From the IMG/VR virus record IMGVR_UViG_3300048672_000152, positions 1 through 64,000 of that record: DNA of 64,000 bases; one strand, written 5' to 3'. Made by a program: the position numbers and the translations under genes. How positions within the stretch are numbered: the first letter of the stretch is position 1; the number at the start of each line of letters is the position of its first letter. The stretch is from a virus. Shown in pieces: positions 48,145-62,873 of the stretch. The notes under the pieces are model-generated. The model was not told the origin of the DNA, did no database searches, and saw only the letters and a program-made list of their open reading frames with translations.

Positions 48145-48861
48145 ATGAACAATATTGAGTGGCGAGTTATCCCAGATTTCCCTATGTATAAAATCTCTGA
48201 ATATGGAGATATTTATAGCTATTACAAATCTGGAAAAATGCTGAAACCTAAATTAGATAAAGATGGGTATCTGGCTGTAAATCTTACTGAGAATAAAGTT
48301 AGACACGACCTACGAGTACATCGTTTAGTCGCTTCAGCCTTTCTAGATAACCAAAATAATCTACCAATTATAAATCATAAAGATTTGAACGTAAGTAACA
48401 ACCATTACTCTAATTTAGAGTGGTGTACTTACACTCACAATACTGTACATTACTATGCTAACGGTATTAATAAAAGAACACTATCTTCTTTAACTAAAGA
48501 AGAAATGTTGTCTATTGTATCAGACTACAAAGATGGTGCTTCACATAAAGATCTTAAAGAAAAATATAACCTAGAGTGTAGGGCTGACGCAATCAGTGAA
48601 ATTGTAACTGGACGTAGATTTTCTGAAATTACCGGAATCGTAAAATCAGATAAATTTGAACAACGCACAACAGCCAAACACGATGATGATTTAATCTTAG
48701 AGCTTTTAATTAAAGCTCATTGCAATAATATACCTCAGAAAACTTTATGTGAAGAATATAAGTTATCTGCTGCACAAATTAGTAGGATAGTTAATGGTAG
48801 CAGACGGAGAGAAGTATTCGAGAAGTTTATGAAGGAGATATATGAAAAAACCAAAAGCTAA
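48145..48861 (+). CDS. free-standing NUMOD4-HNH homing endonuclease
   Basis: EWRVIPDFPMYKISEYG, VHRLVASAF, INHKDLNVSNNHYSNLEW; two HTH-like C-terminal repeats. Confidence 0.9.
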   Translation: MNNIEWRVIPDFPMYKISEYGDIYSYYKSGKMLKPKLDKDGYLAVNLTENKVRHDLRVHRLVASAFLDNQNNLPIINHKDLNVSNNHYSNLEWCTYTHNTVHYYANGINKRTLSSLTKEEMLSIVSDYKDGASHKDLKEKYNLECRADAISEIVTGRRFSEITGIVKSDKFEQRTTAKHDDDLILELLIKAHCNNIPQKTLCEEYKLSAAQISRIVNGSRRREVFEKFMKEIYEKTKS

Positions 48862-50656
48862 GATAACTAACAAAGCTCCAGACCAAGAACCGATAAGAAT
48901 CGGCCCTTGTTCAGAGATGCAAGAATTAGTGTTTAAAAGAGCCACTGAGGTAGATTTCCTACTCATTGGCGGCTCTCGTGGTAAATAGACCGCTGCCACG
49001 TAACCTTGCTAAGTCGGTGAAACCCTAACGTAAAGTCGAGGGCAATACCGAGCCGAATGATTTGATTCATGGGTGTAGAGACTAGAGTAGTATCAAGCGA
49101 TACGAAAACGTAAGGGTGTCGAGAGACATAAGATATAGTCCGACAACACTGGAAACAGTGGAAGTAGCTAGCGCCTACAAAACTGAGACTTGGGCGGCAA
49201 GTCTGAAGTGATGACACAACTACCTTTAATTTGGCGAGATGATCCAAATTTCACGGGTATGTTCACACGTACAATGCTAAAACAATTACTAGGTTCTGGT
49301 GGTCTTTGGGAAATAGCGGCTAAGTATTACCCTTTACTTGGCGCTAAATCAGTTAAGATGCCACAACCAATGTATACCTTCCCTAGCGGTGCTAGACTTC
49401 GTTATTCTCAAATCTCTGGTATGAGCGATGCGGAAAGTTTGAGGGGCCTCCAGCTTTCTTACTTGGCCATAGATGAGCTGACACAGTTAGACCAAAAGAG
49501 TGTGCAATTCTTATTAACCTGTCTTCGTTCAGAAGCAAACATGAACTCTATCTGTGTAGCGTCATGTAACCCTCATAAAGATTCATGGGTGTTTGACCTA
49601 GTATCTTGGTACTTAGATGATAAAGGTTTTGTTGATAAAGAGAAGAATGGTAAGACTCGTTATTACGTAGTCAATGAAGGTCAATTTATCTTTGCAGATG
49701 AAGAAGAATGGTTTAAGGAAAACTTACCAGACTGTGTAACAAACAGCCAAACAGGCGAGTATATTCCACCTAAGAAATTCTGCTTTGTGCAACTAACCAT
49801 ATTTAATAATCCAATATTATTAAAGAAGAACCCAAGGTACTTGTCCGAATTACAGAACTTACCTCCACATGAACGTGATGCCCAATTATACGGCAACTGG
49901 TTTGCCACTGCCGAAAAACCAGACTACTTCAACAGAGCTATGGTTCAAGGTAAGCATGGTGAGCGTATAGCACCTTTCGTACCTATCGGGTCTACGAGGG
50001 TACGTGCTTGGGACAAGGCAGCCACACAGTTCATACCTAAGATAAATAACACTGATGCTGACTTTAGTGCTTGCATAGCAATGGCTAAAGACAGACTTGG
50101 GAATTATTATATCTATGCCGACTTCTGCAAAGATAACTATGACGAATATGAAAAAGTGTATGGAAAGTTCCGTAAGAACTCTGCTCAACGTGACCAGATA
50201 ATGATGGAGCAAGCCAAACACGATGGTAAGGAAACTTATCTAGTAATCGCCAAGGATGCTGCTGCTGATGGGAAGACTGTGTATGAGCAATTATCCCGCA
50301 TGTTCTTATCTGCTGGTTTTAAAGTTAAACCCAGCAAAAGTAGTGCTTCACAGAGTAAGTGGACAAGGTTTGAACCTTTCCTTTGTGCTTGCCAAGCTGG
50401 ATTAGTCCATATAGTCGAAAGCTCCTTCCCTGACAAACGTACTCTTGAACTGTTCTATGCAGAACTCGAAGCGTTTAATCCAGATCCGACAACTGGTAAA
50501 TGGCGTTCAGGGCGTTATGTGAAAGATGATTGGCTCGATAGTTGTAGTGATGCGTTTTTATTTCTATCTATGGAAAAAATATACGCAGTCCCCAAACTAG
50601 GCTCATTTTCACCCCCACCTATAAGCGTTAAAGCTATCGCTTTAGCTGATATGTAA
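48842..50656 (+). CDS. terL: terminase large subunit, spliced: join(48842..48982,49193..50656), 534 aa
   Basis: Splicing restores Walker A GGSRG|GGKS; Walker B LAIDELTQ, SCNP, RAWDKA, C-terminal KDDWLD nuclease motif. Confidence 0.9.
48983..49192 (+). mobile_element. group I intron (210 nt, no ORF) in terL
   Basis: Exon ends in U and pairs with IGS GCCACG (U-G wobble); P10 CCGCU/GGCGG; P7 GACTA(49080)/TAGTC(49136) within AAGATATAGTCC; ends in G. Confidence 0.92.
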
Positions 50657-57226: not shown

Positions 57227-58297
57227 ATGGCTGACGTTCCTATCGAAAGTCGTATTGATGTTGTTGTGTCATTAGGCACACAACCTCTAACCACAGCATC
57301 ATTTGACAGCGCAGTATTTGCTGCTGAATTGACAGATGCTGCATTTGCACAAGATTATAAAATCTATACCTCAGTGAAAGAAATGGTAACTGATGGTTTC
57401 CTCACTACTTCAGCAGCATATAAGTATGCTAGTTTAGTATTCGGCGGTAACTTCCGAGCTAATAAACTGTATGTAGTTAAATTTGGTAGCACTGGTGTTG
57501 CTGTAACTAAAACTCCAGTACAAGCTCTTACTGATTTATTCAATGTAGACGACACCGCTTACTATATTGGTTGTAGTTCACACTCTGATGTGAATGTAAC
57601 TGCATTAGCTGCATTTGCTGAATCATTAGATAAGATGTATGTTCATGCTACACAACAAGCTGGTGTATTAGTTCCAGCAACTACTACTGACATCGGTAGT
57701 GTGTTACAGGATGCTTCATACAACCATGCTTTCACTATCTACAATGCTGCGGCTGATTCTAGCTATGCTGAAGGTGGTGTTGTGGGTGCAATGGCTGCTA
57801 TCGCTGCTGGCACATCTACGTTAGAAGATAAGACAATGGTGGGTGTTACTGTTGACAGTTTAAATGCTACTCAACGTAGTTCATGTGAAGCTAAAAACGT
57901 AGCTTACTATATGCCTATTGCTGGTGTCAATTCAGTGTTCAATTCTAAAGTAGCTTCTGGTCAATTCTTCGATACTATCGTATTCGCAGATTGGTTGAAA
58001 GCTCGCGTATCTGAAGAACTATATGGTTTACTGAAACGTGAATCTGATTTAGGTCGTAAGGTATCATACGATGAGGCAGGTTTCTCTAAGATCCGTCAAG
58101 CTTGTCGTCGTGTAATTGAAGTTGGTCGTGCTAATGGAGCTATCTCTTTAGATAGTGAAGCTATTGTACGTACACCAGAACGTAGTGAGATTTTAGAAGC
58201 AGATCGTATGAATCGTGTTCTTCCAAATCTTGTTGTTGAAGTTCCATATTCTAGTGCTGTACATAAAGTTATTGTACGTGCTTACGTTACAGTATAA
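57227..58297 (+). CDS. tail sheath protein (compact)
   Basis: KTMVGV, SGQFFDTIVFADWLKAR, R..P, AVHKV motifs of DUF3383-type sheaths. Confidence 0.8.
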   Translation: MADVPIESRIDVVVSLGTQPLTTASFDSAVFAAELTDAAFAQDYKIYTSVKEMVTDGFLTTSAAYKYASLVFGGNFRANKLYVVKFGSTGVAVTKTPVQALTDLFNVDDTAYYIGCSSHSDVNVTALAAFAESLDKMYVHATQQAGVLVPATTTDIGSVLQDASYNHAFTIYNAAADSSYAEGGVVGAMAAIAAGTSTLEDKTMVGVTVDSLNATQRSSCEAKNVAYYMPIAGVNSVFNSKVASGQFFDTIVFADWLKARVSEELYGLLKRESDLGRKVSYDEAGFSKIRQACRRVIEVGRANGAISLDSEAIVRTPERSEILEADRMNRVLPNLVVEVPYSSAVHKVIVRAYVTV

Positions 58298-58308
58298 GGA
58301 GATAATTA

Positions 58309-58803
58309 ATGGCTTCTAATCATACTTGGGTATACGACCCACGTAAAACTACCACTACAATTGGTGGTGAAGAAGTATACGGTTGGGCTGAAGGCTCAAT
58401 GATTGAGTTCAGCAAAGCAGACCAAACAACTAGCACCACTCGTGGTTTAGATGGTCGTGATATGACTGTTAACATCAATCCAATGCGTGACGGTACTGCT
58501 ACAATCACTCTGCAACATACTAGCCCATTTAATAAAGTGTTATACACTTGGGCTGAAAGTTATCAGAATGGTTTTAGTTCTACTGTGTTACCAATTGCAC
58601 CATTTAGTTTCCGTGACCCTTCTGGTCTATCTATTGAAACTACATGCTGGTTAGAGCAAGTACCTAGTGTATCTATTGCTCAAGAAACTGGTGAACTGCA
58701 ATGGGTTCTACACTTAGCTGATGTATTACCTAAGACTAATGAATCTTGGGCTGCTGCTAAGAACCTCGGTAACATTCTTGGTATTAATTTACCATCATTC
58801 TAA
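58309..58803 (+). CDS. tail tube protein
   Basis: YDP...G.DG...GTATITLQHTSP.N pattern; follows the sheath gene. Confidence 0.78.
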   Translation: MASNHTWVYDPRKTTTTIGGEEVYGWAEGSMIEFSKADQTTSTTRGLDGRDMTVNINPMRDGTATITLQHTSPFNKVLYTWAESYQNGFSSTVLPIAPFSFRDPSGLSIETTCWLEQVPSVSIAQETGELQWVLHLADVLPKTNESWAAAKNLGNILGINLPSF

Positions 58804-58884: not shown

Positions 58885-59313
58885 ATGACAACAAATTTAG
58901 AACGTAAAAAAGAAATCTTCAATGTAGGCGGTAAAGCCTATATCTCTGTTTCTTGGTCGCCTATGAAAGCTGCTAAGAACCTCCCTAAGATTGGTAAAGC
59001 ATTCGCCGTACCTATCTCTTTCCTTATCGCTGGTGGTGAAAATATCCAATCAGCTATCCCTACAGCTATGATGATGTTGTTCGAGCAGTTAGAAGAACAA
59101 GACATTACAGAGTTGTTCTCTTTAATTCTAGCAGATGTTTGGTCTAAGAGTACAGATAAAGCGTTAAATATTGATACTGATCTTGAGAACATTGATGAGT
59201 TACTTCAGCTAACAGCTAACGTATTGAAGCAACATTATGGGGTACTGATTAACGGTACGGGTTTTACATCCCTGTTCCAAACGATGGTTCCTCTACATCA
59301 AATGGCGGTATAA
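58885..59313 (+). CDS. tail assembly chaperone (G-like)
   Basis: Lies between tube and tape measure genes; contains slippery site G GGT TTT at 59259-59265. Confidence 0.8.
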   Translation: MTTNLERKKEIFNVGGKAYISVSWSPMKAAKNLPKIGKAFAVPISFLIAGGENIQSAIPTAMMMLFEQLEEQDITELFSLILADVWSKSTDKALNIDTDLENIDELLQLTANVLKQHYGVLINGTGFTSLFQTMVPLHQMAV

Positions 59314-59525
59314 AACCGACAAAACAGGCTCTCCAACACATAGAGAGAACATCTAGTTTAACGCCAATCGAAGTTTTATTTCTAAGGGCTGTGAAGGAAG
59401 GTGGTGAAACCGCTATGTCCCTAGAGTCCCAAGATTTGGAATACTTGCTGAAAGTAAATGAGTACCTTGATATTCAATCTTTCTTAGAACAAGATATGCA
59501 AAAACAAATCAACAAAACGAGATAA
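58885..59525 (+). CDS. tail assembly chaperone, -1 frameshift product (GT-like)
   Basis: The -1 frame is open from 59265 (YIPVPNDG...KPTKQALQH...KQINKTR) to TAA at 59523-59525. Confidence 0.8.
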
Positions 59526-59528
59526 TCT

Positions 59529-62500
59529 ATGGCAGATAATGTAGTAGGCTCAGTTGTTGGTCGTGTTAGGTTTAGTATTGATAAAAGGTCGTGGGATAAT
59601 CTCGATTTATTTCAAAAGAAACTTACCTCAATTAAACGACAAATGACTAACATGGACAAGAGTATTAAAGTTAATGCTGTTGTCCAACAAATAAATAAAG
59701 TAGCTAATACGGTCGTGAACGCTGAAAAGAAAGTAGCTAAAGCGAAAGAAGAAGCGGCTAAGAAGAATCATAAACTAATGACTTTCGGTAGTGTTGGTGG
59801 TGATCCTAAAGGTTATACGAAGTTCTGGCAAGAGGAACTAAAGACTCGTGACCAGCTAACTAAAGCCAGAGAAAAGCAAGATGCTATTTACGCTAAACGT
59901 CAACAAGCTGCTCTAGCTAACAATAACAAACGTGCTGGTATGTCTGATAGACTAGCTTGGTTATTCCCTGCATCATCTGTAAGTAATCCAGCCAATCGCG
60001 GTTTGTTAGCTCAAATGCTTCGTGATGAAGCCACTGCGAGTGTTAAGCTCCAGAGAGAACAAGACAAAGCATACGAAGCTCGTCGTAAAGATGTGATGGG
60101 TAGGCGCAATGCTTCTTTAAAATCTCGTGCTGCTCGTGACAGAGCTAAAGAAAAACAAACAGCCAAAGCCAATAGAAATAGAACAGCATTTGAAGCTGGC
60201 GTTGAAAACTTCATGCTCATTAAAGAATCTCAGCTTAATCAATATGCTGATAGGGTGAGAATGAGTCAGCAACAACGTGCTGAGATGATGGGTCGTCTAG
60301 GTAAAGCAAAGGAAGATGCTTTAAAAGGTATTGACCCCACTCAGGCTAGAGCTATTGAATCTTTTAGAGCGCAAGTAAATAAAACTAAGAATGAAATGGT
60401 TAACACTGACCGTATTACTAGGTCTAATGCTGTTTCATTTAGGTCACTACGTAATGAAATTGTGCAACTAACTGCTGCTTATACGGCGTTTAGTGTTGTG
60501 CAGAATGTTGCTCAGACTGGTATGGATCTCGAAGGAATTCGTGCTGCTGCTAAAGTATTTACAGGTAGCGACGCAGGGACTACTGCTCACATGGAATACC
60601 TTGTAGAAATGTCTGATAGACTTGGCGTTAACTTCATGACAGCAGCTAAAGAGTTTAATAAATTCTCTATTGCTGTAGGTAGTAAAGCAGATCAAGGTAC
60701 ACAAAGACATATCTTTGAAGGTTTGTCAGAGTATGCAACAGTATTACAAGTAGACCAACAACAATATGAACGAGCTATTCGTTCAGTAGTTCAAATGTTC
60801 TCAAAGGAACAAGTATACGCTTAAATTCAGGTGCTTCATATAGTAATATATGTCGAAGAATCTCTCTAATTCGGTGGAACTCTTACCATGTAATGATGGA
60901 GACAATGCCGAGCGAAGCTCAATGTATAATATTGAGAACGTGTGACGGTCAGAACGATAGTTCGTACCCTATAAGCTATTGATAGGGGAAACGGGAGATA
61001 CCGTATTATTAAATTAACGGTAAAGAGATGACCTAATCTGTATAGAAATATACAGCAGCATGTAAAGATGCGAATAACTTAGTAGCGTAAGTTATTGAAT
61101 TATATGGAAGAATTACGTGGGCAGTGGACTGACTAGCTGCCATAACATAGTAATATGTTATAAGAAAACTTATTGAATTGCTGGAAACTCCTAAAAATCA
61201 TACACTACAAAGTAATCGGTGACGGTAAGCTTGACAGTTTGAAAAGTTATGATATGATCTTTCTTTTAATAAGAGGAAGTGAAATGGACAATCAGCAGGT
61301 AAGTTCCTGTGAAGAAGTTTGGAAATTATATGAAGATGAACCTCGTTATGAAGTATCTACTTTTGGTAGAGTTCGGCACGTTAAGGATTTATCTATCAAA
61401 TATAGTAAGCCAGATAAAATAGGGTATGTATGCATCCAATGTAAAACAAAAGGTAAAATCAAAAACCTTAAAGTACACAGGATGGTGGCACAGACGTTCT
61501 TAGAAAACCCAAACTCTTTGAGAGAAGTAAATCACAAAGACGGGGTTAAAACTAACAATAACGTAGATAATCTTGAGTGGTGTACGCGCAGGGATAACAT
61601 ACTGCATGGTCACGATATAGGTCTTTACGATTTAAAAGGTTCTAAGAATGGTAGGTCTGTATTAACAGAAGATTTAGTACATAAACTTTGTGCTTGGTAC
61701 GAGAGTTGTCCAAACAACACTCCAAAACTCGCAGTTAAAATGTTTAGTATTAGTATACAGCAAGCATCTAAAATCAGGTGCGGTATTGCATGGAAACATA
61801 TATCTTCTCAGTACAACATACTTCCCTTAGTAAACAGGAAAAACTCCAGAGACTAGGCGTAAGCCGTACACCTAAGCAGGTGGAAGTGGTAAGCTCCTCT
61901 AACGAGGATGAAGATATAGTCCGACCTCATACGAAAGTATGAGCAGCTTGAATAAAGCGGGGATGATGTAGCGAATCATCTTGAACATTTTGTAGCCGAA
62001 GCCCTCCCCGGATCTGTATCAGCAATGATGCGAGCAGCAGGGTATGATAACGAAAAAGATTTCTTTAAAGCTGTAGAAGCTGGTAAGATTATGGCATCAG
62101 AAGTTATGCCAAAGTTTGCCGATGAATTGAAGAAAGTAGCAAGAACAAATGGTGCGTTAGAAGCAACTACTAAAAAGACTCGTGCAGAAATGCAACGGTT
62201 CTTTAACCAACTAACATACGCCAAAGATAATATATTCCAAGGTGGAATGAATGAAGGTTTATCTTATATGTTCGGCTCTTTTGCTGACTTACTTAAAGAG
62301 ATGGAACCAGTTGCGAAAGCTTTAGGTGCTATGTTCAGAGGTGCGGTTGTAACACTTACAGGTGCTATTAAAGTAGCACTTGTCCCGTTCAGAGGTTTAG
62401 TAGCGCTGTTTGATTCATTAGGTGATAACTTAGAACGATTAGGTATTCTTGATGGTAGTGGTGGTATGTGGTCTGTAGTAGGTGGCGCTGGTGTATTGGT

Positions 62501-62873
62501 ATTAATGGCAACACGATTCAATTGGCTGAGTAAAGCAGTGTGGTCTGTCAATAGCGCATTGTTGACAATGGCTGCGAGGTTCGCACCTATCATTGCCGCT
62601 TATGCTGTGCTAGAAGATTTAGCTCTATACGCAACGTATGGTGATAAAGCTGATACTGCAGTAGGTAGGGCAATCAAGTATACGCAAACAAACCCATTAG
62701 CTGACACCACAAGCAAATTGTCAAGCTTCACCCCAACAGGGTGGATAGCCAATCAAGCTAAGACCTTAGTTGAAGTAACAATGAAAGGTGATGCTGATAA
62801 TTGGTTGAGTGCAAAAATAGACCAATTTTCACATATTACATCAGCCGTAACTCAAACGGAGACAAGTCAATAA
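59529..62873 (+). CDS. tape measure protein, spliced: join(59529..60821,61107..61125,61993..62873), 730 aa
   Basis: Splicing restores the tape-measure motif QMFSKEQVYA|EELRGQL|AEALPG and the frame of ORF 62025..62873. Confidence 0.9.
60822..61106 (+). mobile_element. group I intron 1 in the tape measure gene (285 nt, no ORF)
   Basis: Exon ends in U; P element AATTCGGTGGAAC; Q element GACAATGCCGAGC; variant P7 GGTCA(60947)/TGACC(61029); ends in G. Confidence 0.88.
61126..61992 (+). mobile_element. group I intron 2 in the tape measure gene (867 nt, encodes HNH)
   Basis: P1 GGCAGU/GCUGCC; P element AATTGCTGGAAAC; Q element AATCAGCAGG; P7 GACTA(61851)/TAGTC(61917); ends in G. Confidence 0.92.
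61284..61856 (+). CDS. intron-encoded NUMOD4-HNH homing endonuclease
   Basis: GAGGA RBS before ATG 61284; YEVSTFGRV, VHRMVAQTF, VNHKDGVKTNNNVDNLEW. Confidence 0.88.
   Translation: MDNQQVSSCEEVWKLYEDEPRYEVSTFGRVRHVKDLSIKYSKPDKIGYVCIQCKTKGKIKNLKVHRMVAQTFLENPNSLREVNHKDGVKTNNNVDNLEWCTRRDNILHGHDIGLYDLKGSKNGRSVLTEDLVHKLCAWYESCPNNTPKLAVKMFSISIQQASKIRCGIAWKHISSQYNILPLVNRKNSRD

Follow-up and report, generated by a model that had tools for sequence, protein, structure and literature searches.

A 19-nt micro-exon between two tandem group I introns in the tail tape-measure gene of a metagenomic myophage

The gene for the tail length tape-measure protein in IMG/VR virus record IMGVR_UViG_3300048672_000152 very probably carries two independent mobile group I introns of type IA, which are separated by 19 nucleotides (nt) and interrupt the most conserved motif of this myophage gene. 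The window analysed here is the first 64 kilobases (64,000 nt) of the 93,452-base-pair (bp) record, which is rated 100% complete. Within it, a long first exon is followed by an intron without an open reading frame (ORF), a 19-nt micro-exon, an intron encoding an HNH endonuclease, and a third exon (Table 1). This reading is carried by the anatomy of the gene, the exact boundaries of both introns, their ribozyme cores, presence/absence polymorphism in natural DNA and a family-wide hot spot of insertion in related tape-measure genes.

Exon 1 ends in TACGCT at 60821, exon 3 starts with TAGCCG at 61993, and the micro-exon between the two introns (61107-61125) reads GAAGAATTACGTGGGCAGT. Joining the three exons yields 2193 nt and a protein of 730 amino acids (aa) with one terminal stop, reading ...SKEQVYAEELRGQLAEALPGSVSAMMR..., and omission of the micro-exon creates the junction GCT/TAG (splice junctions are marked by a slash), an immediate stop. 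In-frame stops are also found just inside each intron: TAA is the first codon of intron 1, and a TAG follows after three codons in intron 2. The gene was identified as the tape measure by its collinear profile match together with its place after the chaperone in a myophage tail module, in which sheath, tube-like virion protein and tail assembly chaperone were recognised 5' of it with PHROG profiles. In PHROG 5255 ('tail length tape measure protein'), exon 1 covers positions 1-423 and exon 3 positions 431-576, and the seven positions between these halves (424-430) fit the micro-exon. The downstream frame matching tape-measure profiles runs from 61995 to 62870. Exons 1 and 3 each match annotated tape-measure genes in tblastn searches, and the exon 1 product is 79% identical to the first 431 residues of an uninterrupted 723-aa protein (P0002). 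Megablast of the locus against cultured phages gave no match.

Comparison with uninterrupted relatives showed the same arrangement of coding sequence. Over both junctions, the joined protein aligns without a gap to its tape-measure counterpart from Rheinheimera phage Barba9A (36% identical residues over 355 aa; KEQVYAEELRGQLAEALPG here versus KGSLMSEEVKGQFAEAAYG in Barba9A), which has EEVKGQ at the place of the micro-exon. In two IMG/VR contigs with 76-79% nucleotide identity to the window (L006 and L007), the gene is likewise uninterrupted, exactly 19 nt lie between the equivalents of 60821 and 61993, and both contigs encode an identical IRSVVQMFSKEQVYAEELRGQLAEALPGSV.

Closer alleles were found in a plankton DNA run (X2), whose contigs hold a relative about 90% identical to the window. 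In its intron-less form (record 9), 60821 is joined to 61993 with 19 letters between them (GAAGAACTTCGTGGTCAAT), which encode EELRGQ(L). A second form, with intron 2 only (record 10), joins 60821 directly to 61107, so that exactly the 285 nt of intron 1 are absent. This contig keeps the ribozyme flanks of intron 2 (61107-61303 and 61841-62129), between which 661 other letters replace 61304-61840 before it resumes at 61841. Because these natural DNA variants break exactly there, both boundaries of both introns are fixed. The presence of intron 2 without intron 1 means that the introns are separable, and the cassette swap that the ORF is exchangeable inside an unchanged ribozyme. A 19-nt exon is far beyond chance, as independent intron-less DNA alleles hold exactly 19 nt. 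A single long intron spanning 60822-61992 with a pseudo-exon was rejected, since direct joining of exons 1 and 3 gives a stop and the natural alleles retain the 19 nt.

Both insertions have the features of group I ribozymes. The Rfam model RF00028 (cut-off, 50 bits) matched intron 1 at 60812-61055 over the full model (1-253) with 57.1 bits and an E value of 7.6e-12. In intron 2, two sub-threshold partial matches were obtained, one for P4-P6 at 61179-61344 (21.4 bits) and one for P8-P9 ending at 61943 (39.0 bits, E value 5e-8); the match is in two pieces because the ORF inside P6 divides it. The splice-site pairings P1 and P10 were read from the sequence by hand. In intron 1, P1 pairs CGCU/U (60818-60822) with AGGUG (60829-60833), including the wobble U60821-G60830, and P10 pairs UUC (60826-60828) with GAA (61107-61109), with the terminal G at 61106. 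In intron 2, P1 pairs GGCAGU (61120-61125) with GCUGCC (61136-61141), including the wobble U61125-G61136, and P10 pairs CUA (61133-61135) with UAG (61993-61995), with the terminal G at 61992. Both introns follow the group I splice-site rule of a 5' exon U paired to G, a terminal G and a P10. As the micro-exon gives its first three bases to P10 of intron 1 and its last six to P1 of intron 2, the two pairings do not overlap. Placement of the 3' splice site of intron 1 at the end of the Rfam model (61055) was rejected, because translation would then meet a stop codon and because 285 nt, not 234, are absent from the DNA variant.

Further helices were located in both introns: in intron 1, P2 (60837-60852, with a GUAA loop), P7 (60947-60951 with 61029-61033) and P9, P9.1 and P9.2 within 61039-61098; in intron 2, P2 (61142-61161, also with a GUAA loop), P7 (GACUA 61851-61855 with UAGUC 61917-61921) and P9 (61926-61943). 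A consensus fold, made from an alignment of six ORF-less introns (intron 1 of the window, three from the relative L026 and one each from L015 and L022), comprises P2, P4, P5, P6, P7, P7.1, P7.2, P9, P9.1 and P9.2. Compensatory changes, in which at least one sequence keeps the pair after both sides change, occur in 38 of its 57 pairs. When the ORF cassette is removed, the core of intron 2 keeps all pairs in P2, P4, P5, P7, P7.1, P7.2, P9 and P9.2 and four of five in P9.1; P6, the site of the ORF, is the sole broken helix. P7.1 and P7.2 lie between P7 and P3', the mark of subgroup IA, although they are less well aligned in intron 1. The fold of intron 1 was better than those of 100 out of 100 shuffled sequences (z = -2.97).

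The micro-exon itself differs between the X2 alleles. That of the intron-2-only form has no listed difference from the window, and that of the intron-less form differs at 4 of 19 nt, including GGTCAAT for GGGCAGT, a change that would weaken P1 of intron 2. Judged from these letters, the pattern fits either co-conversion of flanking exon sequence in the course of homing or selection acting on P1 pairing.

These results bear out a preliminary description of the locus, in which two separate group I introns had been placed at 60822-61992 around the 19-nt micro-exon. Its coordinates and junction letters all hold in the sequence, and Rfam, the family fold and the natural alleles agree on two introns rather than one. 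The open 730-aa frame and the gap-free Barba9A alignment likewise uphold its claim that both splices are needed to rebuild the protein, the pairings its assignment of intron 1 P10 and intron 2 P1 to the micro-exon, and the immediate stop at GCT/TAG its prediction that skipping breaks the frame; the unspliced product would indeed be 431 aa long, ending at the TAA of 60822-60824.

The ORF of intron 2 belongs to the HNH family. Pfam searches returned HNH_3 (PF13392, 29.8 bits; cut-off, 24.8) and an N-terminal NUMOD4 (PF07463, 25.6 bits; cut-off, 23.4), and PHROG 59 matched with an E value of 2.9e-43. The ORF is preceded by a GAGGAAG Shine-Dalgarno sequence and is 70% identical to the ORF of the intron-like insertion in the relative L017. 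In the Rfam alignment, its first codons, AUG GAC AAU CAG CAG, fall in a stretch placed on the 3' strands of P5 and P4. Since ORF-less members of the family keep the same letters, this stretch is ribozyme core that doubles as the start of the ORF. At the other end, the stop TAG (61854-61856) overlaps the 5' strand of P7 (61851-61855). Both overlaps had been described correctly before, as had the restriction of the endonuclease to intron 2, where HNH_3 and NUMOD4 are found; intron 1 has no room for an ORF. The sole solved relative is I-HmuI of phage SPO1 (PDB 1U3E; E value 4.7e-10). Both proteins are intron-encoded and their HNH regions align (NHKDG...N...NLEW here versus DHKDG...N...NLRW in I-HmuI), but the alignment is limited to residues 18-113, and the C-terminal DNA-binding part, the target gene and the site differ. 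I-HmuI is a nicking enzyme.

The conserved motif is a hot spot of insertion among relatives. In a protein search, many homologues (300-430 aa) were found to end within this motif at differing places, and wherever their DNA was obtained, the introns were confirmed with Rfam. In L011 and L012, one HNH-bearing intron follows ...CAGCAGAT (Gln-Gln/Met). L015 and L022 carry an intron at this Gln-Gln/Met site and an ORF-less one after Lys-Glu-Glu-(Leu), with a 33-nt exon between them. Three tandem ORF-less introns (61, 71 and 88 bits) are found in L026, separated by exons of 44 and 21 nt, and the middle one lies exactly at the intron 2 site of the window (...CAGT/.../TAGCCGAA). In L018 (3796-4998, equal to L023), an HNH-bearing intron is followed by the 11-nt exon TACAACTGGCT (Leu-Gln-Leu-Ala) and a second intron, the start of which resembles intron 1 here; the contig ends inside it. 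Counting Vibrio phage ICP1, whose homologous gene is compared below, seven verified insertion positions lie within about 25 codons, and the relatives have one to three introns per gene and micro-exons of 11-44 nt. An insertion after ...EEIYG in L017 (6900-7900), a few bases 5' of the intron 2 site, was left out of this count, because no 3' junction with a terminal G could be placed and Rfam gave no match. After 30 nt of the next exon the contig diverges, and degeneration of an intron or a chimeric assembly might explain the insertion.

Two side observations concern the same motif. First, dozens of stored 'proteins' (P0003-P0064) are N-terminal halves of tape-measure proteins that stop within it. 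Most often they end in ...VVQ, after which the read-through IECCLPIQ follows; other ends lie after SKGQL, VYA, EEL, ELRG, GQ, LQLA and LPG, and upstream at AQTGME/IKL, hinting at another hot spot some 90 codons before this one. Seen in protein C-termini alone, these break points are leads and were not counted as introns. Second, in the run from the source sample (X1), contigs at 3-4 times higher depth resemble the ribozyme parts of intron 2 alone (about 90% identity). They match the window at 61176-61298 and 61844-61991 and continue into a different exon, ...CAAATGGCTGAAAATGCGCCCGGCAGTG (Gln-Met-Ala-Glu-Asn-Ala-Pro-Gly-Ser), which places related introns in tape-measure genes of other, more abundant phages of the same water.

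In pairwise comparison, intron 2 most resembles the introns at the Gln-Gln/Met site (73-76% in both halves), more than it does the L026 intron in the matching position (70% and 59%). For the 5' part of intron 1, the best match is the L018 intron at the Gln-Leu-Ala/ site (75%). Introns 1 and 2 share 56% and 54% identity, near the shuffle baseline of 50.5 ± 4.8, and were therefore rejected as recent duplicates. Look-alike 5' exon ends occur at different sites, GCAGAU/ at the common upstream site and GGCAGU/ at intron 2, as well as CGCU/ and GGCU/ for the intron 1 type, and would fit re-targeting via small changes in the guide sequence. In a broader scenario, which we put forward tentatively and consider rather unlikely, one lineage of small ribozymes would repeatedly re-target within about 70 nt of the tape-measure motif by guide changes alone, for instance by reverse splicing into look-alike sites. 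Stacked introns would persist as each insertion destroys the targets of rival endonucleases, and the micro-exons would record an arms race of homing elements. In favour of this scenario, introns 1 and 2 are each closest to introns at other sites.

For the window, we propose that the late transcript would be made whole and that each ribozyme would fold and excise itself. For intron 1, P1 would be formed by CGCU/U with AGGUG, and the three bases at the start of the micro-exon would enter P10; for intron 2, the six bases at its end would enter P1 and the UAG of exon 3 would enter P10. The 730-aa protein would then arise from doubly spliced mRNA alone, and the stops inside each intron would halt ribosomes on unspliced RNA. 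The I-HmuI-like enzyme would presumably nick or cut intron-less alleles of co-infecting relatives, and repair would spread intron 2; intron 1, 19 nt off, could travel by co-conversion but is also found, and lost, by itself. As far as can be predicted, nothing in the mechanism is unusual for mobile group I introns: there are two independent, putatively self-splicing elements, one of which encodes a homing endonuclease. That a single HNH enzyme drives co-homing of the two introns, as suggested in the preliminary description, is plausible because co-conversion may act over 19 nt; it is not obligatory, because the X2 relative has intron 2 alone and the introns are not close kin. The further suggestion that splicing serves as a checkpoint on tail assembly is speculation.

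Several points weigh against this reading. No single RF00028 match to intron 2 reaches the cut-off. P1 of intron 1 is short, with four exon pairs and one intron pair, two of them wobbles, and P10 has just 3 bp in each intron. Among RNA runs, none on record holds this stretch of the window; a run labelled RNA-Seq (X20) contained just short pieces of conserved intron cores from other organisms. From the sequence we infer splicing in vivo, the activity and target of the intron 2 endonuclease and co-conversion.

An adaptive layer could be added to the two-intron reading, with which it is compatible: splicing efficiency might gate tail assembly, or the HNH enzyme might damage the intron-less genes of competitors. 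In a reported case, an intron endonuclease mediates interference competition when phages co-infect (PMC11620839), intron-less and intron-bearing alleles occur side by side in one sample (X2), and the hot spot is repeatedly used. Still, a selfish-element account covers everything seen, and ORF-less introns (intron 1 and all three of L026) persist without an endonuclease, so that we regard this addition as improbable. More improbable by far is a dead locus, in which at least one ribozyme no longer splices in a defective or dying phage lineage. The weak P1 of intron 1 would agree with such decay, the genome is known from a metagenome alone, and splicing in the window is read from DNA; against it stand the completeness rating of the record, the intact three-exon frame, a micro-exon identical in another allele (X2) and core helices kept with compensatory changes across relatives. 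Least credible of all is an unspliced gene in pieces, whose 431-aa and ~282-aa (ATG 62025) fragments would be translated separately and assemble, as in the split nrdA of Aeromonas phage Aeh1: gene callers do give two separate ORFs, the upstream one is stored as a 431-aa protein (P0001), and split yet functional phage genes exist (as cited in PMC10448857), but both insertions are intact group I ribozymes whose P1, P10, U-G pair and terminal G exactly restore the frame, the conserved EELRGQ of the 19-nt exon would be lost, the downstream ORF, with no Shine-Dalgarno sequence seen 5' of its first ATG (62025) and no other visible ribosome-binding site, would miss LAEALPGSVSA, and the homologous ICP1 gene is spliced (PMC10448857). 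The junction-spanning peptides EQVYAEELR and GQLAEALPGSVSAMMR would tell the spliced product from such fragments.

Positions of the gene parts and of the neighbouring tail genes are given in Table 1. Between the chaperone ORF and the tape-measure gene lies a short ORF (59391-59525), possibly the chaperone's usual frameshift extension. The same window contains a second split gene, that of the large terminase, terL (48842-50656). Its first exon (48842-48982, 47 codons) ends in ...LLIGGSRG and is followed by an ORF-less group I intron of 210 nt (48983-49192; Rfam, 48.7 bits, just below the cut-off). As exon 2 starts with GGKS, this intron lies inside the Walker A motif. A free-standing HNH/NUMOD4-like ORF (48145-48861) ends 20 nt inside the start of terL.

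Table 1. Parts of the interrupted tape-measure gene and neighbouring tail genes in the window.
Feature	Position	Strand	Details
Sheath gene	57227-58297		upstream of tape-measure gene
Tube-like virion protein gene	58309-58803		upstream of tape-measure gene
Tail assembly chaperone ORF	58885-59313		upstream of tape-measure gene
Tape-measure exon 1	59529-60821	+	431 codons; ends in U (60821), then in-frame TAA 60822-60824
Intron 1, group I	60822-61106	+	285 nt, no ORF
Micro-exon	61107-61125	+	19 nt; EELRGQ and first base of Leu codon
Intron 2, group I	61126-61992	+	867 nt, contains HNH endonuclease ORF
Endonuclease ORF in intron 2	61284-61856	+	190 aa, HNH_3/NUMOD4
Exchangeable ORF cassette, intron 2 P6 region	61304-61840	+	537 nt, replaced in X2 record 10
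Tape-measure exon 3	61993-62873	+	last two bases of Leu codon, 292 further codons, stop

Overall, the preliminary observation is correct in all details and strongly supported. The gain is incremental, because in ICP1 the homologous gene is built alike, as proved by experiment, and has one insertion site in common; what remains of value is the natural series of alleles with exact boundaries, together with the hot-spot map. For annotation, gene callers split an essential tail gene into 431-aa and 282-aa 'proteins' and miss the 19-nt exon, and recognition of the hot spot allows correct tape-measure lengths, and hence tail-length estimates, for a group of aquatic myophages. The locus is also a clean natural case of stacked introns that are gained and lost independently, with intron-less, one-intron and two-intron alleles, and of endonuclease cassettes swapped inside a fixed ribozyme, a principle already established for ICP1.

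Very short exons between group I introns are known outside phages. In mitochondrial cox1 of Agaricus bisporus, such introns flank very short exons, of which exon 2 is 3 nt long (PMC2987802); there, in contrast to the window, the genome is that of an organelle, the endonucleases are of the LAGLIDADG type and splicing is assisted by proteins. Closer is orf142, the tail tube gene of Staphylococcus phage Twort, with three group I introns and exon skipping (Landthaler and Shub 1999, as cited in PMC11878797 and PMC3073962). Like the window locus, it combines several related group I introns in a late structural gene of a myophage with a risk of exon skipping, but the gene is a different one, and in the window skipping of the micro-exon leads to an immediate stop. 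The literature background of the preliminary description names these clustered introns in a late Twort gene but is incomplete: introns in tape-measure genes were already known as well (PMC2504315, PMC10448857). In prophages of the Bacillus cereus group, according to the available text of Tourasse and Kolsto 2008 (PMC2504315), tape-measure genes contain the group I introns TMP-IVS1, IVS2 and IVS3 of subgroups IA1/IA2, where similar introns adapt to different sites via P1/guide and different introns occupy the same site. Several sites per gene and the same pattern of site adaptation are seen in the intron family of the window. In contrast, the Bacillus elements are found in Gram-positive hosts and siphoviral prophages, in tape-measure proteins of more than 1200 aa, and that text describes no micro-exon of ~20 nt.

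The closest known system is Vibrio phage ICP1, whose tape-measure gene has four exons and three introns, as established by RNA-seq, reverse transcription PCR and Sanger sequencing (Barth et al. 2023, PMC10448857). In one ICP1 isolate, the first and third introns contain other endonuclease genes at unchanged junctions, and ICP1 terL is spliced too, with a free-standing endonuclease gene adjoining (PMC10448857), the same layout as that of terL in the window. In NC_015157, Rfam recognised the three ICP1 group I introns with 77.9, 38.9 and 28.9 bits, and our own reading of the sequence by the U, terminal-G and P1 rules gave an 8-nt exon (GAAGAACT), a 16-nt exon and a joined open frame of 677 aa, reading ...SKNQVMAEELKGQLGEVMPNAM.... 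The two tape-measure proteins are homologous and collinear (28% identity over 342 aa, E value 2.6e-33). Both genes have several group I introns in the same motif, one of them with an HNH-3 endonuclease gene and the rest empty; both have very short exons and endonuclease content that varies at fixed junctions, and intron 1 of ICP1, at GCT/GAAGAA, occupies a position identical to that of intron 1 in the window. They differ in the number of introns (three in ICP1, two here) and in their sites, as the third ICP1 intron follows Gln-Leu-Gly and the intron 2 site of the window (GGGCAGT, that is Gly-Gln and 1 nt) is unused there. The intron sequences are weakly alike (~60%, against a shuffle baseline of 50%), and splicing was demonstrated by experiment in ICP1, whereas here it is predicted from DNA. 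By sequence, the window thus appears to hold the same kind of locus as ICP1 with a different set of insertions.

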